Origin: Candidatus Paceibacter sp.
GTDB lineage: Bacteria > Patescibacteriota > Patescibacteriia > S139-126
Direction: 5' to 3'
DNA: 64,000 nucleotides
NCBI GenBank assembly: GCA_020724865.1
Contig: DYGA01000002.1
Span: 12,032-76,031, forward strand
Shown here piece by piece: positions 4,218 through 60,164 of the stretch. Both the position numbers and the translations under genes were made by a program. The notes under the pieces were generated by a model. It saw nothing but the letters and a program-made list of their open reading frames with translations, had not been told where the DNA came from and searched no databases. Numbering within the stretch: position 1 is the first letter of the stretch; the number at the start of each line of letters is the position of its first letter.

Positions 4218-5342
4218 ATGAACTGGTATCACAAAGTACTTATTATTTTGGTGGTTGGATTATTTATATTTATCCATCAAGATGTATTGGTACAAAATTA
4301 CCGTGATAATTCGCCAGTTCTATCTAGCGAAGAAATCACGAAGCTTGAACAGCAAGTAGCACAGATTAGTGCAACTGCTACTCAAGATATTAAGTCTGGG
4401 ACGTATAGCCCCGCAAAGTGGCAACAGCATGTCTACTTTTTGCAAACACAAGTTTTGCAAAAATTTGGTGGTATCTATAGCCGAGAAAAGTTTTTTGTTG
4501 AAGCTGGTAGAATTCTTGATTATACAATCAAGAATTATTATGAGCCTAGATCGAATGATCCAGTTAAAGGATTATTGTTTCAACAAGAAATAAATAGTGC
4601 TCAAGCCAAAGTTTTGCATGAGAACAACGTGACAGTAGACTGGTCAAAATTTGTTTCCAGCATTTGGAGTTTTTATTTATCATTTTTGCCCTACACCTTA
4701 TTAATCATCTTGATTAGAAGGTCGGTTATTTATAAATTAAAATTCCACTCAGCTGGCGATGTTGCAGTTGTCATACTTAGTACCTTTAGCATTATTGGTA
4801 TTTTTGTTTATAAGCCCAAAAGCTTATTACAAAAAACAATAGATGCTGAACTCAAAGTTTGGCAGGAGAAAATCGGTACAAAAGGCTGGAGATTAGCTCT
4901 GGCTTATACATTGGCAATTATATTTGCCATCGGTACTATACTTCGTCCCGCCAAGGTCTACGCGCAAGAATTTTTCAAGGAAAGGGTAGTAATTACCCAA
5001 ATGGTGGAATTAGATTCGGAAGATGAATCTTTAGAATTTAATTTAGCAATTGTGGCAATATTGCAAAGATATTTTGTGGAAACAATCAGAGCAATTCAGA
5101 AATTTATATTTCTGTTTTTCTCCCCGATGTTCATTCTGTTGAATATCCCGCCGCCACGGAGTTTCATTTTTGTTTCTTGGCAAACGCCAAGAGACAAAAT
5201 AGTATTATCTAAAATGATAGTTGGCTGTAGAACTCCTAGTGTTTTGTTTCAGTTTAACTTAATTAACCGAAACAATAAAAAACACAAAGGAATTTACAGT
5301 GAAAAATATCATTTTAATATTATTAATTTTTTTGGCCGCTAA
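4218..5342 (+). CDS. Hypothetical polytopic membrane protein
   Basis: 374 aa ORF with a strong promoter and RBS and several hydrophobic segments. The 3' end overlaps the next ORF by 44 nt, so the true stop may differ. Confidence 0.5.
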   Translation: MNWYHKVLIILVVGLFIFIHQDVLVQNYRDNSPVLSSEEITKLEQQVAQISATATQDIKSGTYSPAKWQQHVYFLQTQVLQKFGGIYSREKFFVEAGRILDYTIKNYYEPRSNDPVKGLLFQQEINSAQAKVLHENNVTVDWSKFVSSIWSFYLSFLPYTLLIILIRRSVIYKLKFHSAGDVAVVILSTFSIIGIFVYKPKSLLQKTIDAELKVWQEKIGTKGWRLALAYTLAIIFAIGTILRPAKVYAQEFFKERVVITQMVELDSEDESLEFNLAIVAILQRYFVETIRAIQKFIFLFFSPMFILLNIPPPRSFIFVSWQTPRDKIVLSKMIVGCRTPSVLFQFNLINRNNKKHKGIYSEKYHFNIINFFGR

Positions 5343-14978: not shown

Positions 14979-15039
14979 ATAAACCAGTTTTAGCAGTCAG
15001 GCGAAATATAATATTATTAGTTTATAATTAAGAAGCAAA

Positions 15040-15110
15040 AATATAAATAACTAATTACTAATGATTAATAATTAGTTATTAGTAATTAATAATTAATTTT
15101 AGTATTTCTA
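15040..15110. repeat. Copy of the dispersed AT-rich intergenic repeat family (core attagtaattaataatt / aattactaatgattaat)
   Basis: aactaattactaatgattaataattagttattagtaattaataatt. Related copies at ~9895-9930, 25990-26073 (and its duplicate), 26320-26350, 28570-28600, 30270-30390, 31770-31830. Confidence 0.6.
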
Positions 15111-25458: not shown

Positions 25459-25950
25459 ATGTATCGGATAATTTTTTATATTTTTTTATTTTTTGTTTTT
25501 ACAGGTTGTGCCACCCAGTCAACATTTACTAATCAGAATATTAATAATAATTATATGCAATTAACTAGTAAAGATTTTTCCGATCATACATATTTATCTT
25601 CTGAATTTACTTGTGATGGCGAAAACAAAAGACCCCAATTAGCTTGGTCACAAGTGCCTACAGCAACCAAGTCGCTGGCTTTGGCCATGTTTGATCCTGA
25701 CGCTCCAGGAGATGGGTTTTTACATTGGTTGGTAGTAAATTTACCGCCGCAGGATTTATCATTGGCTAGCTCTGACAATTTACCTTCACCGGCAATGCAG
25801 ATAAAAAATGATGCAGGAAAATTTGAATATTTTGGACCTTGTCCGCCTCAGGGAGTACATCGTTATCAGTTTACTTTGTATGCTTTAGATGTTCCATCTA
25901 TAAATCCAACAGATTATCAAGATTTTTGCAGCAGATTAATGGACATATAG
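25459..25950 (+). CDS. YbhB/YbcL-family PEBP (Raf-kinase-inhibitor-like) lipoprotein
   Basis: Lipobox FTGCAT. DPDAP and HRY motifs (MFDPDAPGDGFLHW...GVHRYQFTLYALD). Confidence 0.8.
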   Translation: MYRIIFYIFLFFVFTGCATQSTFTNQNINNNYMQLTSKDFSDHTYLSSEFTCDGENKRPQLAWSQVPTATKSLALAMFDPDAPGDGFLHWLVVNLPPQDLSLASSDNLPSPAMQIKNDAGKFEYFGPCPPQGVHRYQFTLYALDVPSINPTDYQDFCSRLMDI

Positions 25951-26327
25951 TTGAACAGGTAAGGCTGACTGGTTTGTATGAGAGAAAGAGATGATTATCA
26001 ATTACTAATTACTAATGATTAATGAATTTTTAATTAGTTAATTAATAAATTAAAACATTGATTAGTAATTAATAATTTGAATATTTTGGACCTTGTCCGC
26101 CTCAGGGAGTACATCGTTATCAGTTTACTTTGTATGCTTTAGATGTTCCATCTATAAATCCAACAGATTATCAAGATTTTTGCAGCAGATTAATGGACAT
26201 ATAGTTGAACAGGTAAGGCTGACTGGTTTGTATGAGAGAAAGAGATGATTATCAATTACTAATTACTAATGATTAATGAATTTTTAATTAGTTAATTAAT
26301 AAATTAAAACATTGATTAGTAATTAAT
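25820..26327. repeat. Perfect tandem duplication, 2 x 254 bp (25820-26073 and 26074-26327). It includes the last ~130 nt of the PEBP gene plus its downstream AT-rich repeat element.
   Basis: Base-by-base comparison of the two copies in the window; no mismatches seen. Confidence 0.85.
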
Positions 26328-26415
26328 AATTAGTTATTAGTAATTTATTAAAACCTTGTTTTATTTTGTTTAAAGTGTTATTATAATTTTGTTTAATTTT
26401 TATATTTAAGATATT

Positions 26416-30311: not shown

Positions 30312-30589
30312 AATGAATTTTAAATTATTTAATTAATAAATTAAGTCATTGATTAGTAATTCGTCATTAGTAATTAGTAATTTATTTTTTTAATAGTTTG
30401 TCAAAAACGCCAGTTTATTTTACTATTAAATCCTGAAATCACCTTGAGTAGGGTACAAGTTTAGAATGATAATAAGATGATAATAATCCTAACTGTCATG
30501 CTGAACTTGTTTCAGCATCTAAAAATAGACCCTGAAACAAGTTCAGGGTGACAAGGGTGAATAAGTTCAGGGTGTCATAATTATATACT

Positions 30590-31767: not shown

Positions 31768-31854
31768 GGGGAATAATTTATTAATTACTAATTTTTAATT
31801 GCTAATAACTAATTTAATTTTACAATTCTATATCCTAAATTCTAGATTCTACTC

Positions 31855-31931
31855 TGGTGACAGGGGGCGGAGTTGAACCGCCGACCTAGGGGTTATGATT
31901 CCCTCGCTCTAACCAACTGAGCTACCCTGCC
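31855..31931 (-). tRNA. tRNA with anticodon CAU (elongator Met, or Ile if lysidinylated)
   Basis: Manual fold: GGCAGGG acceptor, GCTC/GAGC D-stem, anticodon loop aTCATaa, T-loop TTCAACT, CCA end encoded. Confidence 0.7.
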
Positions 31932-31932
31932 T

Positions 31933-32008
31933 TGGTAGCGGGGGCTGGACTCGAACCAGCGACCTCCAGGTTATGGGCCTGGCGAGCTGCCAACTGCTCT
32001 ACCCCGCG
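31933..32008 (-). tRNA. tRNA-Met (CAU), initiator-like: 5' CGCGGGG...CCCCGCU-A-CCA, very similar to E. coli tRNA-fMet, with an unpaired 1:72 position (C1.U72) and C33
   Basis: Manual fold. 1-nt spacer to the neighbouring tRNA. Confidence 0.65.
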
Positions 32009-32148
32009 TCGATAAATACGCTTAAAGATTATATCTTATTTATCTAAATTTTTCAAGATATTTTTTAATAAACCTTAAAATATTACTTATTTCTTAATAC
32101 TTTATTCTGTTTTACATTAACAGAATTAATCAGGTTAATACAAAAGCA

Positions 32149-32235
32149 TGGTGCCGCGGGAGAGAATCGAACTCTCATGAGCTTGCGCTCACAGGTTTTT
32201 GAGACCTGCGTGTCTACCAATTCCACCACCGCGGC
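32149..32235 (-). tRNA. tRNA-Leu (CAA) with a long variable arm
   Basis: GCCGCGGTGGTGGAATTGGTAGACAC...anticodon loop CTCAAAA...long variable arm...TTCGATT T-loop...CCA. Confidence 0.8.
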
Positions 32236-36082: not shown

Positions 36083-36682
36083 ATGAAAACTTATTTTGGC
36101 AAACGGTTGTTTGATCTGGTAATGGCATCTGGTTGCTTATTGGTATTATTGCCACTTTTTATAATTATAAGTTGTTTAGTTTTGATATTTGCCGGACGTC
36201 CGATATTTTATCGTCAGGCCCGAAACGGTTTATTTGGGAAAAAATTTTATATTTATAAATTTAGAACAATGTACAACGGAGCTCACGAGCAGATTGAACA
36301 ATTATTAGTTAATACTACCCAACATCGTTATTGTCATCGGTTAAAAGAAGATCCTCGAGTGACCAAAATTGGCAGAATTTTACGTCGATGGAATTTAGAC
36401 GAGTTACCACAATTAGTTAATATCATTCGCGGCGATATGAGTTTCGTTGGTCCAAGACCTGGCGAGGATTATTTTAGTGCAGATTTAAAGTATCGTTATC
36501 AAGTTGATCACTTACGTCCGGGATTGACTGGATATTACCAAATTTTTTCCCATACTACCGATATTAGTGATGTCTCTATTCGTATCAAACTTATAGATAA
36601 ATATTGGCAAGAAATATCATTTTTGACAGATGTTAAAATAATTTTACTAACCTTTAAGGTTATATGGAAACAGAAATTTTAA
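36083..36682 (+). CDS. Polyprenyl-phosphate sugar phosphotransferase (Bac_transf family, WbaP/WcaJ C-terminal-domain type)
   Basis: KFRTM...DELPQL.NI..GDMS.VGPRP signature. Confidence 0.85.
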   Translation: MKTYFGKRLFDLVMASGCLLVLLPLFIIISCLVLIFAGRPIFYRQARNGLFGKKFYIYKFRTMYNGAHEQIEQLLVNTTQHRYCHRLKEDPRVTKIGRILRRWNLDELPQLVNIIRGDMSFVGPRPGEDYFSADLKYRYQVDHLRPGLTGYYQIFSHTTDISDVSIRIKLIDKYWQEISFLTDVKIILLTFKVIWKQKF

Positions 36683-43505: not shown

Positions 43506-44210
43506 TTAAACTTTGCTTTGAGAAAAATAATATCTGATAGTATTGATTATTTCTTTTTTTAAATTAATTTTATTTTTCAGACAGACCAGTAGAGGAATTT
43601 CCGTAAAATTAATTTGTTTGAATGTCTTTATAACTGAACTAGTAGGTGGTTGAAAAAACGCCCATGGATAAGTAGCGGTTGAAGTATCGATTATTAATTT
43701 AAAACGATTTTGTTTTAAATGATCAATAAGTTCATCTTCGGTGTAATTGTTTATCAATACACCGGGATATTTATTTTTAATATTTTTTTCTTCTTGGCCG
43801 CTAAAAGTAGTTATTTGTTCAGCGTAGGACTTAAAATAGATTAAAATTTCCCCATCCTTTTTGATGGCTGCTTGTGAATTGACGGTACCATTTAGGGTTG
43901 GTAGTTCCCACTGATTGATAATAAAGGCATCAAAGCCTTCAATAATCGATTTTAAATTTTGACTGTATTTTTTTTCGGCGTAGACTATTTTTTTGGTGGG
44001 AAATAGCCTAGTTTCTTCAAGAATTTGAAAATTTTTGTAGTAGTTTTGCGAACCTAAACTGATAATTAGCCAGTCAAAGTTTTCGTTTTTTGTTCTTTGA
44101 ATCAGTTCACTTTGGCTTTTGGTTTGTTCCATATATTCCCATGGTAGTAAAGGGGAAATTTTTTTGTTGATTTTCGGTAAGTGGCAAATAATCTTTTTTT
44201 GCTTTTTCAT
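43506..44210 (-). CDS. Hypothetical protein, first gene of the mfd operon
   Basis: 234 aa ORF; no motif recognised. Confidence 0.45.
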   Translation of the reverse strand: MKKQKKIICHLPKINKKISPLLPWEYMEQTKSQSELIQRTKNENFDWLIISLGSQNYYKNFQILEETRLFPTKKIVYAEKKYSQNLKSIIEGFDAFIINQWELPTLNGTVNSQAAIKKDGEILIYFKSYAEQITTFSGQEEKNIKNKYPGVLINNYTEDELIDHLKQNRFKLIIDTSTATYPWAFFQPPTSSVIKTFKQINFTEIPLLVCLKNKINLKKEIINTIRYYFSQSKV

Positions 44211-44477
44211 TTTTTATACTCCTGATTGTTAAATTGCGAATTAAAATATTTTTTCATATTATTATCAGTAAGTCAAATCATTAAATATTATTAAGTAAAT
44301 TATTATTTTTATTCAAGATAATTTATATTTTAATCTGGAATCATGATTATGATTAAACATAATGTTTAGTTTTAAATATTATTGTTTTTTTATGATGATG
44401 ACAGTGATTTTTTATTTTTTTGCCCAGTGATATAATTAGTTTAGCTGATAAATATTAAATAATTAATAAACAATTTT

Positions 44478-45245
44478 ATGGTGGAAACAAATGGTAAAAA
44501 GTGTTTATGGCGAGAGCCAAAATACATTTTAATTTTGCTGGGAATATTATTGTTAGCGGGTATAGTTATTGTGGCAATCTTACGTGATCGTATTGTAAAT
44601 CAACCAAATTGGCAGGTCAGTGTAACGGGCAGAGGAACAGTTAGCTATGAACCTGATGTGGCTATTATCACCATGGGTGTACAGGTTGATAAAGTGAATA
44701 AAGCTGACCAAGCTTTGACGCAATTAAATGAAAAAATAAATAATGTTATTAAAGCTGTCGAAGAAGTTGGAGTGACCAAAGAAAATATTAAAACCCAAAA
44801 CTATTCTTTGTATCCTCAGTATGATTGGATAAACAACGTGCAAACTCCAGGTGGTTATACTGCCAGTCAATTATTAATGGTTAAAGTAACAAATTTATCT
44901 GTCAACAAGGATTTGGTTTCCCAAGTAATTGCCGCAGCAACCAAAGCCGGGGTAAATCAAATTCAGGGTGTCAGTTTTGACAGTTCAAATATTGAAGATC
45001 TAAAACAGGAGGCCAGACTTAAGGCAATTGCTGATGCTAAAAAGAAAGCCGGTAGTATTGCTAGTAATTTAGGCGTTCGTTTAGGTAAAGTGATAGGTTG
45101 GTGGGAAAATCCGGTAACTTTACCAGGAATGCCTTATTATAATGAGATGGGCGGTTATGGTGGTGGAGGTAATTCTACTCCCAGTGTTCCCAGTGGCAAT
45201 CAGGAAATCATTATGGATGTTAGTATTAATTATGAAGTCAAATAA
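44478..45245 (+). CDS. SIMPL/DUF541 (YggE-like) periplasmic/secreted protein
   Basis: VSVTGRGTVSYEPDVAII...QNYSLYPQYDW...GVRLGKVIGWWE matches the conserved DUF541 pattern. Confidence 0.7.
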   Translation: MVETNGKKCLWREPKYILILLGILLLAGIVIVAILRDRIVNQPNWQVSVTGRGTVSYEPDVAIITMGVQVDKVNKADQALTQLNEKINNVIKAVEEVGVTKENIKTQNYSLYPQYDWINNVQTPGGYTASQLLMVKVTNLSVNKDLVSQVIAAATKAGVNQIQGVSFDSSNIEDLKQEARLKAIADAKKKAGSIASNLGVRLGKVIGWWENPVTLPGMPYYNEMGGYGGGGNSTPSVPSGNQEIIMDVSINYEVK

Positions 45246-45260
45246 AGGTCAATTAATTTA

Positions 45261-45292
45261 AACTCCCTAAAATTTTATTTTTAGGGAGTTTA
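45261..45292 (+). terminator. Hairpin terminator after the SIMPL gene
   Basis: aactccctaaaa/ttttagggagtt stem. Confidence 0.5.
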
Positions 45293-45297
45293 AAGTC

Positions 45298-45325
45298 TTG
45301 ACAAATTTTTTTTATTTGTTAAAAT
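45298..45325 (+). promoter_or_regulatory. Promoter TTGACA-16-TAAAAT driving the candidate sRNA
   Basis: cttgacaaattttttttatttgttaaaatg. Confidence 0.5.
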
Positions 45326-45332
45326 GTTTAAA

Positions 45333-45505
45333 CATTAAAAAATTAATACTCATTAGGTTCCTAGCACAGTGGTGAAAGCAAAAGCATCCCTCCTTGCTTT
45401 TGACGAGTAACTCTAAGTCAAGGGTTCTAGATTTTTCTAGTTACCTTTGCACTGACTAGGAGCCTAATGAGTATTAAAAATCCCGCTTAGAGGCGGGTTT
45501 TTTTT
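45333..45505 (+). ncRNA. Candidate structured small RNA (~170 nt), class unknown. A long imperfect closing helix (ctcattaggttcctagcacagtg / cactgactaggagcctaatgag) encloses two internal hairpins. It ends in a rho-independent terminator (cccgcttagaggcggg + T8).
   Basis: Own promoter and terminator; no coding potential; GC-enriched relative to its surroundings. Strand assignment rests on the promoter. Confidence 0.45.
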
Positions 45506-46079
45506 ATTGATTATTAAAAAGACTTTGGGCTTTAGGTATTCCTTCATTTAGAGCTGTATCCAGAGCAGTGAAAATTTTTTCTTGGGCTTGGCGGATACTA
45601 TTTTGTTCAGCGGCAGTTGGTGGTTTTAAGACATAATTACTGATTTTACCAAAAAATTTAGGCCTACCAATCCCGATACGAAATCGCACAAAATGTTTGT
45701 CACCCAATGCATCTATTATGGAAGCTACCCCATTATGTCCGCCAGCCGAAGTATTGTATGATATTTTTATTTTTCCTGGTGTTAGATCAAGGTCATCATG
45801 AATTACCCAAATATTTTCATTAGCCAATTGATAAAATGATTTTATTTTTTCAACTGCTTGTCCAGATAGATTCATGAAGGTGAGAGGTCTAACTAATAAT
45901 ATTTTTTTATCATCCCAAGTGCCAGAGGTAATTTGTGAAGAAAATTTTTCTTGGGGAGTAAAATCAGGAAAAATATCGGCATGTTTTTTTTGCCAAGCGG
46001 CGATAACCTGCCAACCTAAGTTATGTCTAGTGAGTTCATATTTTTTTTCTGGATTGCCCAGACCAAAAATCGCAATCAT
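45504..46079 (-). CDS. pth: Peptidyl-tRNA hydrolase
   Basis: MIAIFGLGNPEKKYELTRHNLGW...HNG. Confidence 0.9.
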   Translation of the reverse strand: MIAIFGLGNPEKKYELTRHNLGWQVIAAWQKKHADIFPDFTPQEKFSSQITSGTWDDKKILLVRPLTFMNLSGQAVEKIKSFYQLANENIWVIHDDLDLTPGKIKISYNTSAGGHNGVASIIDALGDKHFVRFRIGIGRPKFFGKISNYVLKPPTAAEQNSIRQAQEKIFTALDTALNEGIPKAQSLFNNQ

Positions 46080-46122
46080 TTTATAATTTAAAATTTATAA
46101 TTTTGTTTACTATTTTCTAGTT

Positions 46123-47487
46123 TTATTTTACTGAAGTAATAAAAAGCCGCAATGGTGTTCCCTGAAAATCAAATTCTTTGCGCAAATTATTTTCGATAAA
46201 ACGTAAATAAGAACCGTGTAATGATTTTTTATATTTGATAGTGATTTGAAAGGTCGGGGGATTAACGCCAACCTGTTTAAGATGATAAATGTAGGGGTGT
46301 CCTGCTCCTTTGCCTCGAGCCGGCGGATGTTTGCTGATTATTTTTTTTAAGAATTTTTGTAAAGCACTGTCAGAAATTTTTGTAAACCTTTTATTGTAAA
46401 TTTCAATTGCTTGGTCTAGCATCGTATGAGTGCGTTGTTTGGTAAGGGCAGAAGTAAAAATTATCGGTGCCCAGGTTAGATGAGGGAAAGTATTATAAAT
46501 ATATTTTGTATAAGTATTAATAGTAGTTTCATCCTTATCAGGCACAAGATCCCATTTATTAGCTACAATCAGAATGCTGTTGCCACTTTTGACTGCATGT
46601 TCAGTTAAGTGTCTATCTTGAAAAGTTAGAGGCTCTGATATGTCTAAAATTAACAAAGTTATATCTGAATTTGCTATTTTGTGTAAAGTTTGGTCAATAC
46701 TAAATTTTTCTAAGCGGTCACTTTTTTGCGCTTGGCGTCTGATGCCGGCTGTATCGGTTAAAATCAAATTATGCTCTTTGTATTGAACAGCAATATCTTG
46801 AGCGCCTCTGGTTGTATGAGCTTGGCTGGAAACAATTTGTTTTTCAAAACCTAAAATTGAGTTGATTAATGAGGATTTGCCCACATTAGGTTTGCCAATA
46901 ATAGCTAGACGAATAGTTGATTCTTTTTTTATATTTTGATCTTTGATATTTTTACCGGTCGGTAAAAATTCAACAATCGCATCAAGTAAATTGCCTGTCC
47001 CTATGCCATTGACTCCAGAAACTGGAAAAATTTTATCAATGCCGAGTTCTGACCAATCAAGTATAGCTGAATGCCATTTTTTGGCATTATCAAGTTTTGT
47101 TATTACCAAAAAACAAGGTCGGCCAATTTTTTTAATTATTTTAAAAACATCATAATCTTCAGCTACTAAACCAGTTTTACCATCTACTACCATTAGTATT
47201 AGTTTAGCGTTCTTGGCAGCGACTAATGTTTTTTCATAGATTTGTTTGCTAAAGACTTGTTGTTTGTCAGTACTAATACCGCCAGTGTCAATTAAGGTAA
47301 ATTTTTTACCGTTCCATTCGATATCATTTTCTTGAGAATCTCTGGTAGTTCCAGCAAGCGGTGAAATTAAAGCCGCGGGAGTTTCGGTTAAACGGTTAAA
47401 AAGAGTGGATTTGCCAACGTTAGTTCTACCCAACATAACCACTTTGGGCAGTTGTTTTTTTCTAGGTGATGAAGTTATTTTATCCAT
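46123..47487 (-). CDS. der: GTPase Der/EngA (tandem GTPase domains + KH-like domain)
   Basis: Two G1 motifs GRTNVGKSTLFN and GKPNVGKSSLIN; DTAG G3 motifs. Confidence 0.9.
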   Translation of the reverse strand: MDKITSSPRKKQLPKVVMLGRTNVGKSTLFNRLTETPAALISPLAGTTRDSQENDIEWNGKKFTLIDTGGISTDKQQVFSKQIYEKTLVAAKNAKLILMVVDGKTGLVAEDYDVFKIIKKIGRPCFLVITKLDNAKKWHSAILDWSELGIDKIFPVSGVNGIGTGNLLDAIVEFLPTGKNIKDQNIKKESTIRLAIIGKPNVGKSSLINSILGFEKQIVSSQAHTTRGAQDIAVQYKEHNLILTDTAGIRRQAQKSDRLEKFSIDQTLHKIANSDITLLILDISEPLTFQDRHLTEHAVKSGNSILIVANKWDLVPDKDETTINTYTKYIYNTFPHLTWAPIIFTSALTKQRTHTMLDQAIEIYNKRFTKISDSALQKFLKKIISKHPPARGKGAGHPYIYHLKQVGVNPPTFQITIKYKKSLHGSYLRFIENNLRKEFDFQGTPLRLFITSVK

Positions 47488-49182: not shown

Positions 49183-49259
<77 letters not shown>

Positions 49260-52136: not shown

Positions 52137-55100
52137 ATGCAATTATTTTCTTTTCCGCAAAGCAGAATTTCGGAAAAACATTGTGCTTTTCCTGTTTTTG
52201 GTTCTCATTTTTTTAAATCATTTATAAATAATTTTCTAGCTACAATTATTTTGGGAGCTATTTTTTTTGTTCCTACTTTGGTTTCAGCGCAGGGTGTTGA
52301 TTTCGGATTGGGTTATGGCAGCGCAATTGGTTTGGGTACACAGGATATTAGGGAAACTGTAGCCAGAATTATCAAGATTGCTTTGGGGATTTTGGGCATT
52401 ATTGTTACTTTGATAATTATTTATGGTGGTTATGTTTGGATGACCGCGGGTGGTAGTGAACAAAAAGTTAGCTTAGCCAAAAAAATATTAATCAATGGGG
52501 TAATCGGTTTGGTTATTATTATTTTAGCTTACGCTTTGACAGTTTGGATTTTTAGAATAATTATTGGTGGTACGACTGGTGGCGGGAGTGGCAGTTGTGT
52601 TGAAGGTCAAATTAGCGGCTGTACCCGCTGTGTGGGCGGCACCTGGATATATGATGGGAGTATTCCTGGTTGTGTCTTGCCCGGAGCAGATTTTCGGGTG
52701 AAAAATATTCAAACAACTCACGGAGGAAATAACCCCGCTCAAGATGTTTATTTGTGTTCCCGGATACAATCAAATTTTAGCAATCGTATTGCTGCTCAAT
52801 CAGTAGCCGATGCTTTAAATGCTAATCAATTGAGAATTGATACCTTTGCTGGTAATTGGCAGGTGACCAGTAATGTTTTAACTTTCAAACATGATGATAA
52901 TTTATTTTCCATAAATACTGCCTATAGATTATTACTGCCTCGACAAGGTAATACCACACCATTGTTTGATCAAAACAACTTAAATTTAACCCAATGTGAT
53001 CCAATTGTGGGTTGTGCCAGTACTTTGGAGCATTTTACTTGGGATTTTGTTACTGGAGAAGATAATGATGATGTTGCTCCTGAAATAACCAATACTTATC
53101 CAGTATCTGATATAACCAGTCCAACTTATCCTGATCGTAATGTATCTCGTTCGCCAATAATGGAGGTAAATTTTTCGGAAAGTATTGATGCTACTTCAGT
53201 GGCTGATAGTAACGGTAATCCATTGGCTGGAGTAATAACTTTGGAGCGATTAAGCGATCGGGGAGGTAGCGTTGATTTAACTATACCTAACAATCAATTG
53301 GAAGTATATTTTACTAGCAATGGTTTTCGTTTTAATTTAATTGAACCAAATTTACTCGATAGTTTCCGTTGGTATCGAATTACTGTCCAAGGCGTAGAAG
53401 ATTTATGTGGTAATCAAATGGCTGCGCCCAGAGTCTGGGAGTTTCAAACCAATGACAGTTCCCCAGGGGTAAGAACTTGGTATCCTACCGGGACCAATCA
53501 GTGTTTGGATGTTGATGTAATTGTTGGTTTTAATAGTTCAATGTTTGATCAACAAGTTACTTTTGTTATTTCTGGCAGTGACGGCAGTGTTTATAGCGCC
53601 ACAATGAGACCATCCTTATTGGAACCAGGACCTTATCAGGTAGCTGGCAGCGGTGGTAGCTTATCCGTAGCTGATCCGGGGCAACCTTATAGTAACAATT
53701 TTAAATCTTTTGTTTTTAGAGCAAATAATGGTTGGCGCGCTAATACCACTTATTCTGTGACAATAACTACTGATTTAGTGATTAATACCAATGGTGATAC
53801 TTTGTCACATAATTGGAATTTTAGCACCTCGGATGCTGCTAGTTGTGTTTGTTCACCTTATATAATGTCGATTAATCCTAATCAGGGAATGGCCGGTCAG
53901 TGTGTGACGGTTCAAGGTAGATGTTTTACTGGTACTTCAGCTAAACCAGCTGAAATTACGAATGTATCAATTAATGGTCAAACTGTAACCGTTGGTGGTT
54001 CTGATAGTAATTATTTTACTACCAGCATTCCTGACAATTTACCAGTCGGCACGCAAGCGCCGGTGGTTGCCACTATTACTTATCAAGATCCAGAATTGGG
54101 GAGTATTACCAGTAATAACAATGTTAATTATTATGTTAATCAACCGGGTATATATAATGGTCCTTGCTTATGGTCAATAGTGCCATCACTTGGTTGCGCT
54201 GATACTAGTGTTACTTTAAATGGTATTAGATTTGGTACTGATCCGGGTAATTATCAAACTGATCAAAATAATGTAACTTTCAATTTAAACCGCAGAGCTA
54301 GGCAGTCAGATTTTAGTTTGTGGTCAGACACTTCAATTCGTACCCGGGTGCCTCAGGCAACAGTAGATGGTAATGTTTATGTAACTGCCAATAGTTTAGT
54401 AACCAATGGCGTGCCTTTTGATATGTCTTGTGGATCAGGAGGTGCCTGTTCGGCCGATCCTAATATTTGTAGTCCTAACCCCACCAGTTGCGCTGTTGGT
54501 TACGAATGTAATACTAGTTGTATTTGCCAAGCAGTAGGTGGGAGCGTAGGCGACCCTTGTTCTTCAGATCCCAATAGTTGTGTGCCAGACGATACTTTAT
54601 GTTCGAGTTCTTTGTTTTGTGATCCTAATAGTTGTACTTGTCAATCAAATGGTGAAACCACAACTCGATTTAACGTGATTGCTAATTGGCCGACTTGTGA
54701 AGGTGTGTGTGTAAATTCTGAAGTGGGTTTAAGATTTTCTACCAGCGTTGATCCGACTACTGTTACCAATGCCAATATTGCCATATTTGATTATCGGGAT
54801 AGTGGTTACACCCAAATGGTAGGCGAAGAACAAATTACTGTTTTCCTTAATTCTAGCACTAATGAAGTTTATATTTATCCCAACGGTGGTTTGTCTCGTG
54901 GTTATTATATGAGAGTGGTAGTTAGAAATGGAATTTTAAGTAGTAGCGGACAAACAATCCAGAATTTAAATTTTGATGAAGACGGTAACGGGGTAAATGA
55001 TAGTTATGCTTGGACCTTTAGTGCCGGTAACGAGACTTGTACTTTGACGGCAATAGAAAATAGTCCTGTCCTGATGACTTTCAATAACATCAACCAAAAT

Positions 55101-58100
55101 CAAACTATTTATGGCAGGGCTATATCCAGTCAGCAGTGCGGACCAAATCAATATGTCAATCCTTGGGATCATGATTGGAAATGGGAAGATACAAATAATG
55201 GCAATATTGCCAAAGTTACCAATCGAGATATAAATAATGATAATAAATATGATCCCGCTCAAACTGTTACTTCAATTGCAGCAGGCACTACGCAAATAAG
55301 AAGTGAAGTTGATAGTAATTTAACAGCTTTAAGTGATGTTATTGTTGGCAGTGGTAGTAGTGGTGTGGGGACAGTTTGCGATGCCGATCCAAATACTCCA
55401 CAGTGTGATCTAAATAATAACATCTGTGGCAATTTTGGTTTAGTCTGTGATCCTAATGCTAATTGTACCTGTCAGCAAGCAGGTTACACGCCTTTGACTC
55501 CCGGTGTGGTTAGTGTAATTCCTATTAATAATCAGACTGATGTTTGTCGTAATAGTATAGTTCAAGTCACTTTTAATCAAAAAATGGATACCGGTTCTAT
55601 TGTTTGGCAGTCCACATTCAAGATCAATGACAATGACCGTGATGATGTGAGAGGAAATTTGAATTTTATTACGGTCAACAATGGTGTCTATGGCTGTAAC
55701 AATCCTCAAGGTTGTACAGTGGTTAGATTTTATCCATCGCGAGCTTATGTTCAAAACAGTCTACACACGATAACACTGACTACTGGGATTAAAAATTTAT
55801 CCGGATTGTCACTACCTGCCAATTTTGTATCTAGTTTTACGACTGGTAGTCAGATTTGCAAAGTCAATACTGTTGACCTGCAGCCAAATTATCATTTATT
55901 TACCACTTTAAATGAGAGTGTAGTATATATGGCTACCGCTAAAGATTTACGCGGTGGTTTAGTAGCGCCAATCCCCGGTTTTTATGATTGGAATTGGCAG
56001 TGGGTCAAAGCTGATGATGATAATGTGGTCAATATGGAGGATGTTGGTAATCCTGACCGGAGAAATATTGTTGCCCAATCTAGTAATGGCCTAGCCAGAA
56101 TTAAAGCCACAGCAGAAATTACTACGGCTGATGTTTCAATTGGTGATAGTGTTGGCAGAAAAATTAGCGATAGTAGCGAGGCGGAAGTATTTATTTGCAT
56201 ATATCCTTGGCCAGCCACACCACCGATGCAGGATTCACAGTATGGTTTTCAAATGAAATATTGTCGCGGCAATGATAGCGCTAATTTGTTGGGTATGTTG
56301 TCAGATCCGACTAATTCTATTATTTCTCTTACCACTTCTGATCCAGATTTAGAAAGAGAATATTTATTTAATTATCTGGTTTCTTCTTTGCCCGTGGGCG
56401 GACAAACAGAACCATTTATTATCAGTAAATTACAAAGGTTTAAAATTGGTCAGTTATTAGTTTTATGGTGGAAAAACTTATTAGCTATGTTCAATAAACA
56501 GTCAGTTTGGGCACAGGTACCCCAAGATGTGATTGGATTGCGGATTTATAATAATCCTAATCGCTTGGGTCCGAGAGCTTGGTATGAACAAAAATCATTC
56601 CCCAAGGGTAATCCGCAAGATATTACTGTTGATGGATTTCCCGCCATAAAGGATGGTACTTCAGTTTATATACTTGGCCCTCGACGCGCGGGTTCAATTG
56701 AAACTTATATTTATGTTTTGTCTTACAATGATTTATCCAGTCAGAATAATATTGCCATTTTTAATCAGTTAATAAAAAATTTCCGTTTTTATACTTTAAC
56801 GCCGGAAGAAAAACCAGCCGTTGCAAGGGATTTAAAAAGATTGGCTGATGCCAGTTTTATAGCGACGCAATTAGAACGTTATAAAAATCGAACTGGAAAT
56901 TATCCAGCTTTGTCCGCGGGAAGTTATATTGCCGGCATGTCAACCAGTAAATGGCCTTCTTGGCAGGCTACTTTAGGAAACCAATTAGGTGTAAGTATTC
57001 CCAATGATCCAATTAATAAATTTGCCAGTTATTGCTCTAATAATCCCAATCAAAGTTGTTGGCAAAATAGTGATTGTGGCACTGGACAGTGTTTATCAGG
57101 TTGTGGCGAAGAGGCAAATCCTGATACCTGTTGGAACGAAGTGACTCAAGAATATTCTTGTCCGGCTGGTTCAGCAGTTTATCAGTACCGACGTTATGGG
57201 ACTAATGATTTTCGTATTGGTGTATTATTGGAAGTAAATGATTATGAAGCTTTGCCAACTTATTTAGATGTAAATGAAGCTTATTGTAATGGTACTATTT
57301 ATACTGGCGATGGTTTTTGCGGTGATGGCATAGTTCAAGCATCTTTAGGGGAGCAGTGTGAAGTAGGGCAACAAATTTTAGCCTGCAATCCTACTTGGCC
57401 CAATTATTACAATCCTATTTATCAGCAATGTGAATCAGATTGTAGTTGGCCTGATGCTCAAGTATCTACTTGTGGCGGTTATTGTGGTGATGGTGTATTA
57501 CAGTCAAGTAATGAAATTTGTGATGGCACTGCCGGTCTGGGAGGAGTAGGGCCAGCCACTTGTTATACTGATTGCAGTGGTTTTTATTGTAATCCCGGTT
57601 ATGTTTTAGTAGGCGGTGTTTGTCAGCTTGATTGGTGCAATCCTGCTACTCAGGATTGTTCTAGTCAAATACCCAATGGCAATGGTCAATATCAATCTTG
57701 TAATTATGTCAGTGGTAATTGGCAGTGGTCAGATTGTCAGGTAACCAGTTGTAACCCCGGTTATGTGATTAGTGGAAATAGTTGTGTTTTACCTCAACCC
57801 ACAGTAACTATAACTAGCCCAGCTAACAATACTAACGGCGGCAGTAGTGTTACTATGACTTTTGTAGTAAATCAAGGTGGGGTATACAACGTGCTGCGTG
57901 ACGGAGTGATTGTTTATACCACCGGTGTCAATGCCGGAACTTATACTTACAATTTTACTGGACTAACTGCTGGACCTCATGTTTTAGGAGTATCTATTAC
58001 CAATGCCAATGGCACTGGTAATGCGCAAATAAACTATACTGTTAATCCACCACCTCAACCCACAGTAACTATAACTAGCCCAGCTAACAATACTAACGGC

Positions 58101-60164
58101 GGCAGTAGTGTTACTATGACTTTTGTAGTAAATCAAGGTGGGGTATACAACGTGCTGCGTGACGGAGTGATTGTTTATACCACCGGTGTCAATGCCGGAA
58201 CTTATACTTACAATTTTACTGGACTAACTGCTGGACCTCATGTTTTAGGAGTATCTATTACCAATGCCAATGGCACTGGTAATGCGCAAATAAACTATAC
58301 TGTTAATCCACCACCTCAACCCACAGTTACTATTACTAACCCTACTAATGGTAGTACTGGCACTAGCACTGTTTTTCTAACCTTTAATATTAGTCAAAGT
58401 GGAGTATATACCATTTCGCGCAACGGCTCACTTGTTTATACTAGTGGCAACGTAGCAACTGGTAGTCATACTTATGTTTTGGGGGGATTGTCACCCGGAC
58501 CACATATTTTAGGTGTATCTATTACCAATGCCAATGGTACGGGTAATGCTCAAGTTATTTACAATGTTAATCCACCCCCGCCAGATCCGCCGACCGTTAC
58601 TATAAACAGTCCTGCCAATAATACCACGGGTGGTAGTAGCGTGACTATGAATTTTACGATTAGTCAAAATGGTACTTATAATATTTTACGTAATGGGGTG
58701 GGTATTGCCACCAGCACTGTATCAGCCGGAACCTATACTTATACTTTCAACAATTTAACTAATGGTAATTATATTTTAGGAGTATCTATTACCAATGCCA
58801 ATGGCACTGGTAATGCGCAAATAAACTATACTGCCAATACACCTCCCCCTACCGTCACTATCAATAGTCCTGCTGATGGCGGCACTAGTAATTCTAGTAT
58901 TGTTGTTATGCAATATACAGTTAGTGCCGCAGTAACAGCTTCATTTTTTGTTGATGGTTCTTTGGTAGGTGGAACCAGTCATAGTAGTAGTGGCACATAC
59001 AGCTTTGATTTTACTGGTCTTACTAATGGTACTCATATATTACAGGTCAATGTTAGTAATTCTTATGGGAATGCTAGTGCTCAAATTACTTACAATATAA
59101 GTGTGCCGCCGGTTGTTACTATTTTAAGTCCGGTTAACAATAGTAGTGGTGGTAGTAGCGTGGTAATGCAATTTAATATTAGCCAGGCTGGAACTTATAG
59201 ATTATTTTTGGATGCCACACCAGTATTTACTACCACTGCTAACGCTGGAACTTATACGTATAATTATACTGGTTTAACCACCGGTAGTCATGTCTTGCGA
59301 GTAGAATTATCAAACAGTTATGGTAATGATAGTGATCAAGTAACATATAATAAGATAGCAGAAATACCAGCTGCTCCGTCGGGATTAACTGCTGTTGCCA
59401 GTGGTAATAATATAACTTTAAATTGGACAGATAATTCTAACAATGAAACAAATTTTGTAATTGATCGGGCAGTTGGTAGTCCAACATCTTGGACGATTGG
59501 GTATACTATGGTTGGTGCCAATGTTACCACCTTCCAAGATACTGGTTTATCAGATGATACATATTATTATCGAATTCGAGCAGAAAATGTTGATGGTTTT
59601 AGTGCTTACTCCAATACAGCTAGTGCCGTAGTGTTATCACAAGCTACCATTTTTGTTTCCAGTCTTTCAACGCAGGGCAATGTGGGTGCTGGTTATATAG
59701 AAAATGTTGATCAATTTTGCCAAAACTTAGCTAATGCTTCAAGTTTAGTCAGACCTGGACAATGGCGGGCTTGGATTTCAGGTTTGTCAATGTCAGGGAT
59801 CAATATAAACGCAAAAGGACATTTTACTGGCTATCAATCTGTCCCATTATATAATAAAAGTAGTTCAAATATGTTTTTAGTCGCTAGTAATGTGTCAGCA
59901 TTATGGACCACTGGAATTCAAGCAAATGTTTTGTATGATGAAAATGGGATTAGTAGGCCGACTGATATCTATACTGGTACTTATAGTGATGGCTCAGCTT
60001 CTGGTATAAATTGTAATAATTGGTCAAATAATACTTGGTATTATGGTGGAGGAGTTGGCGTAAATGATTATTATCCTATTGCAGGTCTTCCTCTTTGGAC
60101 TAATTCTCATCAACTTAGTTGTAATATGAACGCAAATATTTATTGTATTTGGTATAGACCATAA
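52137..60164 (+). CDS. Giant (2675 aa) cell-surface protein. Layout: N-terminal signal-like segment plus two hydrophobic helices (membrane hairpin), long Cys/Asn/Thr/Gly-rich region with clustered Cys knots, six ~87-aa Ig-like tandem repeats, an FN3 domain, and a C-terminal Cys-containing globular (lectin-like?) domain.
   Basis: Continuous ORF. Repeats QPTVTITSPANNTNGGSSVTM...GVSITNANGTGNAQINYTVNPPP x6 (two identical at the DNA level). FN3-like APSGLTAVASGNNITLNWTDNSNNETNFVIDRA...YYYRIRAENVDGFS. Confidence 0.7.
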   Translation: MQLFSFPQSRISEKHCAFPVFGSHFFKSFINNFLATIILGAIFFVPTLVSAQGVDFGLGYGSAIGLGTQDIRETVARIIKIALGILGIIVTLIIIYGGYVWMTAGGSEQKVSLAKKILINGVIGLVIIILAYALTVWIFRIIIGGTTGGGSGSCVEGQISGCTRCVGGTWIYDGSIPGCVLPGADFRVKNIQTTHGGNNPAQDVYLCSRIQSNFSNRIAAQSVADALNANQLRIDTFAGNWQVTSNVLTFKHDDNLFSINTAYRLLLPRQGNTTPLFDQNNLNLTQCDPIVGCASTLEHFTWDFVTGEDNDDVAPEITNTYPVSDITSPTYPDRNVSRSPIMEVNFSESIDATSVADSNGNPLAGVITLERLSDRGGSVDLTIPNNQLEVYFTSNGFRFNLIEPNLLDSFRWYRITVQGVEDLCGNQMAAPRVWEFQTNDSSPGVRTWYPTGTNQCLDVDVIVGFNSSMFDQQVTFVISGSDGSVYSATMRPSLLEPGPYQVAGSGGSLSVADPGQPYSNNFKSFVFRANNGWRANTTYSVTITTDLVINTNGDTLSHNWNFSTSDAASCVCSPYIMSINPNQGMAGQCVTVQGRCFTGTSAKPAEITNVSINGQTVTVGGSDSNYFTTSIPDNLPVGTQAPVVATITYQDPELGSITSNNNVNYYVNQPGIYNGPCLWSIVPSLGCADTSVTLNGIRFGTDPGNYQTDQNNVTFNLNRRARQSDFSLWSDTSIRTRVPQATVDGNVYVTANSLVTNGVPFDMSCGSGGACSADPNICSPNPTSCAVGYECNTSCICQAVGGSVGDPCSSDPNSCVPDDTLCSSSLFCDPNSCTCQSNGETTTRFNVIANWPTCEGVCVNSEVGLRFSTSVDPTTVTNANIAIFDYRDSGYTQMVGEEQITVFLNSSTNEVYIYPNGGLSRGYYMRVVVRNGILSSSGQTIQNLNFDEDGNGVNDSYAWTFSAGNETCTLTAIENSPVLMTFNNINQNQTIYGRAISSQQCGPNQYVNPWDHDWKWEDTNNGNIAKVTNRDINNDNKYDPAQTVTSIAAGTTQIRSEVDSNLTALSDVIVGSGSSGVGTVCDADPNTPQCDLNNNICGNFGLVCDPNANCTCQQAGYTPLTPGVVSVIPINNQTDVCRNSIVQVTFNQKMDTGSIVWQSTFKINDNDRDDVRGNLNFITVNNGVYGCNNPQGCTVVRFYPSRAYVQNSLHTITLTTGIKNLSGLSLPANFVSSFTTGSQICKVNTVDLQPNYHLFTTLNESVVYMATAKDLRGGLVAPIPGFYDWNWQWVKADDDNVVNMEDVGNPDRRNIVAQSSNGLARIKATAEITTADVSIGDSVGRKISDSSEAEVFICIYPWPATPPMQDSQYGFQMKYCRGNDSANLLGMLSDPTNSIISLTTSDPDLEREYLFNYLVSSLPVGGQTEPFIISKLQRFKIGQLLVLWWKNLLAMFNKQSVWAQVPQDVIGLRIYNNPNRLGPRAWYEQKSFPKGNPQDITVDGFPAIKDGTSVYILGPRRAGSIETYIYVLSYNDLSSQNNIAIFNQLIKNFRFYTLTPEEKPAVARDLKRLADASFIATQLERYKNRTGNYPALSAGSYIAGMSTSKWPSWQATLGNQLGVSIPNDPINKFASYCSNNPNQSCWQNSDCGTGQCLSGCGEEANPDTCWNEVTQEYSCPAGSAVYQYRRYGTNDFRIGVLLEVNDYEALPTYLDVNEAYCNGTIYTGDGFCGDGIVQASLGEQCEVGQQILACNPTWPNYYNPIYQQCESDCSWPDAQVSTCGGYCGDGVLQSSNEICDGTAGLGGVGPATCYTDCSGFYCNPGYVLVGGVCQLDWCNPATQDCSSQIPNGNGQYQSCNYVSGNWQWSDCQVTSCNPGYVISGNSCVLPQPTVTITSPANNTNGGSSVTMTFVVNQGGVYNVLRDGVIVYTTGVNAGTYTYNFTGLTAGPHVLGVSITNANGTGNAQINYTVNPPPQPTVTITSPANNTNGGSSVTMTFVVNQGGVYNVLRDGVIVYTTGVNAGTYTYNFTGLTAGPHVLGVSITNANGTGNAQINYTVNPPPQPTVTITNPTNGSTGTSTVFLTFNISQSGVYTISRNGSLVYTSGNVATGSHTYVLGGLSPGPHILGVSITNANGTGNAQVIYNVNPPPPDPPTVTINSPANNTTGGSSVTMNFTISQNGTYNILRNGVGIATSTVSAGTYTYTFNNLTNGNYILGVSITNANGTGNAQINYTANTPPPTVTINSPADGGTSNSSIVVMQYTVSAAVTASFFVDGSLVGGTSHSSSGTYSFDFTGLTNGTHILQVNVSNSYGNASAQITYNISVPPVVTILSPVNNSSGGSSVVMQFNISQAGTYRLFLDATPVFTTTANAGTYTYNYTGLTTGSHVLRVELSNSYGNDSDQVTYNKIAEIPAAPSGLTAVASGNNITLNWTDNSNNETNFVIDRAVGSPTSWTIGYTMVGANVTTFQDTGLSDDTYYYRIRAENVDGFSAYSNTASAVVLSQATIFVSSLSTQGNVGAGYIENVDQFCQNLANASSLVRPGQWRAWISGLSMSGININAKGHFTGYQSVPLYNKSSSNMFLVASNVSALWTTGIQANVLYDENGISRPTDIYTGTYSDGSASGINCNNWSNNTWYYGGGVGVNDYYPIAGLPLWTNSHQLSCNMNANIYCIWYRP
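57792..58313. repeat. Perfect in-frame tandem duplication, 2 x 261 bp (57792-58052 and 58053-58313), encoding two identical 87-aa Ig-like repeats inside the giant gene
   Basis: Base-by-base comparison; identity continues ~14 nt into the third, diverged repeat. Confidence 0.85.

Follow-up and report, generated by a model that had tools for sequence, protein, structure and literature searches.

A candidate small RNA gene with an anti-Shine-Dalgarno-like loop defines a new structured RNA family beside pth in Patescibacteria

We analyzed a 64,000-nucleotide stretch of DNA from Candidatus Paceibacter sp. (contig DYGA01000002.1, positions 12,032 to 76,031; hereafter "the window", whose numbering is used throughout), in which an original prediction had placed a structured small RNA between the SIMPL gene and pth. 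The locus, at 45298-45505 of the + strand between SIMPL and the convergent pth, very probably holds a genuine and conserved structured RNA gene read from the + strand, and the loop of one of its hairpins resembles an anti-Shine-Dalgarno (anti-SD) sequence. The proteins encoded around it are SIMPL (recognized by Pfam), Pth, Der, LytR, and Mfd. The features of the locus are as follows:

45260-45291, + strand: hairpin past the SIMPL stop codon (AAACUCCCUAAAA/UUUUAGGGAGUUU), read from the sequence; context, outside the RNA
45298-45303, + strand: -35 hexamer TTGACA, invariant in all homologs
45317-45325, + strand: extended -10 element TGtTAAAAT, kept as TGnTAARAT in 7/7 close homologs
45332-45505, + strand: predicted transcript of ~170 nt, with the start placed 6-9 nt past the -10 element and the end within the U-tract
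45482-45505, + strand: intrinsic terminator, CCCGCUUAGAGGCGGG then U8, with its hairpin at 45482-45497; bidirectional
45504-46079, - strand: pth, whose stop codon (45504-45506) lies inside the terminator T-tract

The promoter lies where it had been predicted, with TTGACA and TAAAAT (45320-45325) separated by a 16-nt spacer and a TG at 45317-45318; it matches 11 of 12 consensus positions and is the top-scoring site in 44400-46200. By itself such a match is weak evidence, because the 64-kb window contains nine sites of at least 11/12 where 5.3 would be expected by chance, but it gains weight from the fact that both hexamers are invariant in all homologs. The strong rho-independent terminator was also correctly foreseen: its G+C-rich hairpin and T8 score on both strands, and it also ends the convergent pth. 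The bounds of the putative transcript are deduced from the positions of these two elements.

No open reading frame (ORF) of at least 30 aa was found in 45262-45503 on either strand, and the G+C content of the RNA stretch is 41% versus 17-24% in the flanking spacers, as expected from the original description of ~170 nt of non-coding, GC-enriched DNA. A small-ORF reading was rejected, as the only ORFs present are 21-27 aa long and not conserved; likewise, the mini-ORF that the window could start with AGGAG-N4-AUG reads GUG, UUG, or CUG in relatives, with no common stop. At the place of the hairpin that follows the SIMPL stop codon, relatives carry a hairpin of another sequence (CCCC..GGGG). In the window, the hairpin at 45260-45291 likely ends the SIMPL transcription unit and sets it apart from the RNA promoter.

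The + strand RNA folds with a predicted energy of -72.9 kcal/mol (z = -10.3, equaled by none of 200 shuffles) and the - strand RNA with -62.3 kcal/mol (z = -7.5). In the window's own fold, the closing helix consists of 21 bp (45344-45364/45456-45476, one G.U) and a further 5 bp, CAGUG/CACUG, with two conserved hairpins inside, which bears out the imperfect terminal helix of ~22 bp around two hairpins proposed originally. A third small hairpin, within the junction strand J2/3 of that same fold, is not conserved and was discarded. RNAalifold and the covariance model agree on the consensus fold, a three-way junction whose connecting strands J1/2, J2/3, and J3/1 measure 7, 16, and 0 nt. Since J3/1 has no nucleotides, helix P3 is likely stacked coaxially on P1. 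The parts of the structure are listed below:

45343-45371 with 45450-45477, + strand: closing helix P1 (helix 1), 29 pairs, one bulge
45372-45378, + strand: J1/2, GUGAAAG, moderately variable (GUCAACG, GCCAACG)
45379-45402, + strand: P2 hairpin, with an 8-bp stem (45379-45386/45395-45402) that covaries (G-C to A-U, A-U to G-C)
45387-45394, + strand: P2 loop UCCCUCCU, 8 nt, anti-SD-like, invariant in 8/8 homologs
45403-45418, + strand: J2/3, ACGAGUAACUCUAAGU, 16 nt, with AGUA and AAGU invariant in the 7 close homologs
45419-45449, + strand: P3 hairpin, 7 + 5 bp, with a U-rich loop (UUUU)
45450-45477, + strand: 3' strand of P1, CACUG A CUAGGAGCCUA..., with an SD-like AGGAG inside it, paired through a G.U

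The two halves of P1 behave differently. Compensated changes accumulate freely in the outer one, and the inner one, UAGGUUCCUAG/CUAGGAGCCUA followed by CAGUG/CACUG, is invariant in six sequences and partly altered in the relative L029. An alternative pairing of UUGAC (45400-45404) with GUCAA (45417-45421) is possible, and covariation cannot judge it because these segments are invariant.

To find homologs, relatives were gathered through Pth, as a graded series from 96% to 49% identity in a large protein collection, and their contigs were inspected. The RNA is present beside pth in L014 and L015 (Pth 96% identical, RNA identical), L016 and L017 (78%), L020-L022 (74%), L018 (72%), L030 (70%), L019, which is the same as L031 (65%), and L029 (55%). 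These represent seven distinct clear homologs at the same site, on the opposite strand downstream of pth, with Pth 55-96% identical. Samples in which homologs occur include SRR11582162, SRR10807893, SRR32031701, ERR14790957, ERR10503104, and JGI 3300031650. The gene order LytR-der-pth is conserved among the relatives that carry the RNA. SIMPL is absent in L020 and L030, where the RNA remains, which ties the RNA to the junction between pth and X-mfd and not to SIMPL; gene X is the neighbor that adjoins the RNA in the ancestral order:

43506-44210, - strand: gene X, 234 aa

Promoter and terminator are retained in 7/7 distinct sequences, with the -35 and extended -10 elements invariant or nearly so. 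A terminator hairpin follows the stem in all seven close homologs and has a different sequence each time, and the segment of 10-15 nt from the predicted start to the stem is variable and A/U-rich. Between these, the 141-nt body is free of indels in six sequences and has two 1-nt deletions in L029. In five homologs whose pth DNA is 71-77% identical to that of the window, identity of the RNA core reaches 87-96%, and in L029, the most distant of the close homologs, the figures are 74% and 63%. The RNA is therefore more constrained than the neighboring essential gene pth.

The RNA was not found beside pth in the stretches fetched for L023 and L024 (Pth 59%) and for L034-L036 (49%), nor in L025-L028 (61%), where a cassette resembling a diversity-generating retroelement fills the site. 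This cassette, at 3063-4483 in L025 and downstream of pth in L026 and L027, consists of a split RVT_1 reverse transcriptase and bAvd. A P3-like hairpin, UCUAGGUUUUUCUAGU, lies inside pth in L025 and L026 (2557-2579; 14.7 bits) and is probably there by chance.

A Pth scan with one genome per GTDB species returned relatives of at most 43% identity only, all labeled as Patescibacteria/Candidate Phyla Radiation (CPR) groups. No RNA was found next to pth in these, the full covariance model with filters off matching long plain hairpins only. Among JGI metagenome contigs, a 24-base loop-plus-junction pattern retrieved one contig, identical to L019, and among viral contigs it retrieved none; this pattern would miss diverged members such as L032, a distant homolog described below. 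With a single metagenome contig and no viral match, the family appears, with the search methods used, limited to a narrow, uncultured CPR clade.

The main covariation figures come from the seven-sequence alignment. Standard pairs occupy 95.9% of pair cells, versus 31-48% with the 3' strand displaced by 1-3 columns. Both sides have changed in 13 pairs, a number reached by one of 500 shuffles, and the covariation score is 0.293 compared with 0.137 for shuffles, none of 500 reaching it. The double changes are distributed over all three helices (eight in P1, two in P2, and three in P3), and P1, with its 29 pairs, is paired in 94% of cells. The original prediction had pointed to compensatory-looking mismatches in the long helix, and in relatives that helix is indeed conserved and covaries, as do the two others. 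G.U pairs occupy 26 cells and would turn into A.C if the opposite strand were read; as these pairs fit the + strand only, the RNA is placed on that strand. The full covariance model agrees, scoring 166 bits on the + strand and 41 bits on the - strand.

These data bear on the simplest alternative, that there is no RNA gene at all and that the locus is a DNA palindrome, a miniature inverted-repeat transposable element (MITE), or the plain terminator region of two convergent genes. A near-perfect 21-bp inverted repeat around ~90 nt and a terminator in common with pth are what such an element might look like. The 20-nt helix arm, however, occurs in the window at its two complementary positions with no further copy, and an element that is single-copy in 64 kb is not a MITE. 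It also occupies the same site across genomes with Pth 50-96% identical, its arms change by compensation and contain G.U pairs that work on just one strand, that strand also keeps the promoter, the pattern is absent from viral contigs, and conservation is higher inside than in the arms, where a transposable element would show the reverse. We consider a DNA-level explanation extremely improbable.

One more distant homolog was found in L032 (Pth 50%), between a GGDEF gene and mfd and on the opposite strand to pth, where the full model with filters off scored 25.6 bits. Plain long hairpins elsewhere reach 20-32 bits with this model. As P1 alone can yield such scores, a core-only model lacking P1 was built to test L032; it gave 38.4 bits for L032:4263-4336 (E=2.6e-7 in ~100 kb), with a runner-up at 14.7 bits, and a sequence-only profile (nhmmer) gave just E=0.72. 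L032 retains AAGCAAUCCCUCCUU, a 16-nt J2/3, AGUAGCCUUA, identical to that of L018, and the 0-nt J3/1. Within J2/3, AGUA is kept and AAGU reads AGGC. Its P3 has 15 bp with a UUUU loop, its P1 has 24 bp of wholly different sequence, and J1/2 carries an insertion of ~45 nt. Once L032 is included, pairing in P2/P3 reaches 98.1% of cells, with double changes in 11 of 20 pairs (9 of 12 in P3); these counts lean toward structure because this alignment was fitted to the model. Just upstream of mfd in L032, between mfd and the RNA promoter, there is also a perfect palindromic hairpin of ~27 bp (4556-4610).

The surroundings of the L032 copy differ from those of the others. A 12/12 promoter stands at the equivalent place, no terminator is present, and the RNA ends ~35 nt before AAGGAGGUGA-GUG, the start of the SD-led GGDEF gene. 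This arrangement raises the question of whether the RNA is a cis-acting leader or sensor, in which the junction would sense a signal and gate an anti-SD-like sequence masking a downstream SD; the copies of the window clade would then be orphans that work in trans or govern transcripts reading through antisense to pth-der. The promoter without terminator close upstream of an SD-led gene fits this explanation, as do the array of an anti-anti-SD, GGAUGGAUU, an anti-SD, AAUCCCUCC, and an SD, AAGGAGG, in L032 and the highly conserved, aptamer-like junction residues. Yet the arrangement is found in one genome only: in 7/7 close homologs, a terminator and then the 3' end of the convergent pth come directly after the RNA, which leaves nothing to regulate in cis. 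In addition, P1, with its 24-31 bp, is far too stable for a switching helix, no alternative pairing of P1 with the terminator exists, the terminators differ freely, and no known riboswitch model matches. We therefore consider the leader or sensor explanation unlikely.

Comparison with known RNAs gave no family for the locus. With Rfam 15 at gathering thresholds, the whole window yields four tRNAs and nothing else. These tRNA genes form a cluster of three (31858-32235, - strand) and one isolated gene (49183-49256, + strand). At E<=10, the 361 nt of 45200-45560 give 44 weak matches, all driven by the terminator or by the long stem or a plain hairpin; there is no 6S, signal recognition particle (SRP) RNA, tmRNA, RNase P, RsaE, 6C, Y RNA, CsrB-type, riboswitch, or ribozyme match among them. 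The same search on L032 returned terminator- or plain-hairpin-driven matches only, and ARAGORN reported neither a tRNA nor a tmRNA at the locus. The lack of likeness to SRP RNA, tmRNA, and RNase P RNA noted originally is thus borne out by the absence of Rfam matches.

Several further identities were tried and rejected. SRP RNA is contradicted not only by the absence of an Rfam match but also by loops of 8 nt of pyrimidines in P2 and UUUU in P3, where domain IV has a GNRA-type loop. Mimicry of the entire 3' minor domain of 16S was dismissed, as the 5-6-mers in common stand in another order and are variable, and there is no small-subunit rRNA match. In a sarcin-ricin motif formed by the GAA of J1/2 with the AGUA of J2/3, the G varies to C, and the UCCUC that the loop would need to form a pyrimidine-motif triple helix with the AGGAG tract of P1 is absent. 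An antiterminator pairing with the terminator does not exist either, and the terminator sequences differ freely.

The literature searches found no earlier description of this RNA and, together with Rfam, almost no described regulatory RNAs in Patescibacteria/CPR bacteria. The RNA is a new family that matches no Rfam family and has, so far, a narrow Patescibacteria/CPR distribution. The seven homologs and the distant one uphold the original proposal of a novel small RNA that is structured and has a promoter and terminator of its own.

The original prediction had also floated, tentatively, a 6S-type RNA, while noting that the three-way-junction shape is not the classic 6S rod. A divergent 6S RNA would bind the RNA polymerase holoenzyme by mimicking an open promoter. 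The length of ~170 nt, the strong housekeeping-type promoter, and the long closing stem would suit it, and in L032 the RNA and the downstream gene may share a transcript, a parallel to 6S and ygfA in E. coli. The search of the 361 nt, however, gave no 6S model match even at E<=10, and the covariation-supported fold, a three-way junction as described, leaves no nucleotides on its 3' side (J3/1). The long internal stem of 6S is replaced by an 8-bp hairpin, and a two-sided central bubble is therefore lacking. The 6S idea is not supported and is very unlikely.

A feature that the original prediction did not mention is the anti-SD nature of the single invariant loop. The P2 loop, UCCCUCCU(U), includes the anti-SD core CCUCCU and is predicted to be unpaired with a probability of >=0.97 in six of the seven close homologs, the window included, and of 0.79-1.0 in L029. 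The genome around it makes little use of such sites: with a crude gene call, about 6 of the 50 genes of the window have an AGGAG or GGAGG site, and the other leaders are A/T-rich.

4218, 15274, 26694, 27901 (- strand), 36083, and 43506 (- strand): SD-led genes of the window, 5/6 without a Pfam match

They encode chiefly small proteins without a Pfam match, plus a Bac_transf sugar transferase. Pairing with the loop at <= -6 kcal/mol is predicted for 18% of start regions and for 19% of random 25-mers, so there is no general SD signal in the window. The top predicted partner in the window is the leader of the Bac_transf gene at 36083, UGGAGGGAAC, with -14.2 kcal/mol for the loop versus -10.4 for the standard anti-SD. 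Gene X keeps its SD in four of the five relatives checked; der, pth, SIMPL, and mfd never have one.

The best explanation, which we put forward tentatively, is an independent small RNA gene of ~170 nt that acts in trans through its anti-SD-like loop. Transcription would start from the near-consensus sigma-70-type promoter with its extended -10 element and end at the terminator common to pth. P1 (~29 bp) would stack on P3 and P2 would project from the junction, exposing UCCCUCCU; the loop would mimic the anti-SD core CCUCC(U) of 16S rRNA, pair with GGAGG-type SD sites, and block ribosome binding. RsaE and RNAIII set a precedent, as their unpaired UCCC or C-rich loops occupy SD sites and thereby prevent initiation (PMC2790875). 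As most genes have no SD, the RNA would act in trans on a small SD-led subset, and in L032, where it lies directly upstream of the SD-led GGDEF gene, it could act in cis. The long P1 may stabilize the RNA or serve in processing by RNase III. The RNA gene itself is very probable; pairing of the P2 loop with SD sites is a tentative proposal for its mode of action.

A number of observations weigh against this explanation. That CCUCC can pair with an SD is a generic property of low information, the target prediction spans the 50 genes of the window only, and there is one C-rich loop here where RsaE and 6C have several. In L032, the upstream GGAUGGAUU is predicted to mask the loop motif (unpaired probability ~0.02), and the minimum-energy fold shows no predicted pairing between the motif and the GGDEF SD. 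The known distribution is narrow, the sample is small (eight sequences), and the pairing counts that include L032 carry the bias mentioned above. Finally, P3, J2/3, and inner P1 are near-invariant besides the loop. Base-pairing small RNAs usually conserve the seed alone, and conservation of the whole core is more typical of a protein- or ligand-binding RNA or of a tertiary fold.

Given this whole-core conservation, binding of a protein or sensing has to be taken seriously as a competing role. In a ribonucleoprotein (RNP), the RNA would serve as scaffold, sponge, or decoy, with inner P1, J2/3, P3, and the pyrimidine loop as recognition surfaces; an example of a partner would be a factor normally found on the 3' end of 16S rRNA, which would be titrated or delivered. 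Across genomes with Pth only 55-78% identical, ~100 of 141 positions do not vary, among them helical positions that would have been free to covary, and the promoter is strong and near consensus. In its long terminal stem and pyrimidine-rich loop the RNA resembles the broad layout of Y RNAs and other RNP RNAs, and the loop matches 10 of 11 positions, with one deletion, of AUCACCUCCUU at the 3' end of E. coli 16S rRNA. On the other side, the neighbors LytR, der, pth, SIMPL, X, and mfd provide no linked partner candidate, SIMPL being lost in L020 and L030, and there is no match to Y RNA, 6S, SRP, or CsrB-type models. The sequence of inner P1 is entirely different in L032, so it is not universally needed. 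An RNP function seems to us somewhat doubtful, if clearly more plausible than a cis leader.

A more speculative reading, and a rather unlikely one, is that the RNA represents a new class of structured regulators specific to SD-poor CPR bacteria. It would be an abundant mimic of the 16S 3' end whose junction binds a protein or small molecule and in this way gates the anti-SD copy. Such an RNA would exert global control over the few SD-dependent genes, in trans in the window clade and in cis at the GGDEF gene of L032, or it would instead titrate a factor of the 16S 3' end.

Other sequence features were observed in the window. The der-pth spacer (46080-46122, - strand) consists of tandem A/T-rich units of 7-8 nt, ATTATAAATTTTAAATTATAAA, which read TTCTAAATTCTAAATTCTAAA or CCTAAATCCTAAATCCTAA in relatives; such pre-pth spacer repeats also occur in L016, L018, L019, L020, L026, and L029, with the architecture kept and the unit sequence drifting. 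Another A/T-rich repeat, TAATTAGTTATTAGTAATT..., of ~33-75 nt, is dispersed over intergenic regions in direct and inverted orientation.

15007-15101, 25997-26095, 26251-26352, 30312-30389, and 31772-31839: copies of the TAATTAGTTATTAGTAATT repeat, in spacers

In or next to an A/T-rich intergenic region, 25820-26327 is a perfect tandem duplication with a unit of 254 nt. A giant ORF of 2675 aa (52137-60164) contains, at 57791-59365, five to six tandem units of 261-267 nt (87-89 aa), two of them identical, and its product is probably a repetitive surface protein.

A strongly conserved and strongly promoted structured RNA would be among the first regulatory RNA candidates in the tiny genomes of CPR bacteria. 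An anti-SD loop in an SD-poor genome leads to a testable question, namely whether SD-dependent translation forms a separately regulated channel, and the RNA is short, with a well-supported fold and clear mutational targets in the loop, J2/3, and inner P1.

Among known systems, 6S RNA (ssrS) has a similar length, a strong promoter, and a long stem closing the 5' and 3' ends, from which the present RNA differs in having neither a two-sided central bubble nor a long internal stem. Y RNAs, both eukaryotic and bacterial (Yrn1/YrlA), also have a long terminal stem with enclosed hairpins, a pyrimidine-rich loop, and a length of 100-170 nt; in contrast to them, the present RNA has no model match and no tRNA-like module (ARAGORN), and among its neighboring genes there is no Rsr/Ro60 gene. 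Anti-SD riboswitch or leader platforms likewise carry a CCUCC-type element able to mask an SD, and the L032 copy lies in a 5' leader, whereas in 7/8 genomes a terminator comes after the RNA and a downstream gene is lacking, P1 exceeds the length of a switching helix, and no known aptamer matches.

The closest parallel is with the C-rich-loop small RNAs of Gram-positive bacteria, namely RsaE/RoxS, the hairpins of S. aureus RNAIII, and 6C/B11 of Actinobacteria. Like the present RNA, RsaE, RNAIII, and 6C are encoded by stand-alone genes with their own promoter and intrinsic terminator, have a conserved unpaired C-rich loop motif complementary to the SD (PMC2790875), and show no obvious dependence on a linked chaperone gene. 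The differences are nevertheless substantial. There is no homology, with no RsaE or 6C match at E<=10; those RNAs have two or more C-rich loops and the present one a single loop, and where the RsaE-type motif is UCCC, this loop is a full anti-SD copy, CCCUCCU. Its hairpin belongs to a three-way junction with a closing helix of ~29 bp, conservation extends over nearly the entire core and not just a seed, and the host genome is SD-poor. In its putative working principle, the RNA most resembles the C-rich-loop small RNAs that target SD sites, with an architecture and a pattern of conservation unlike theirs.

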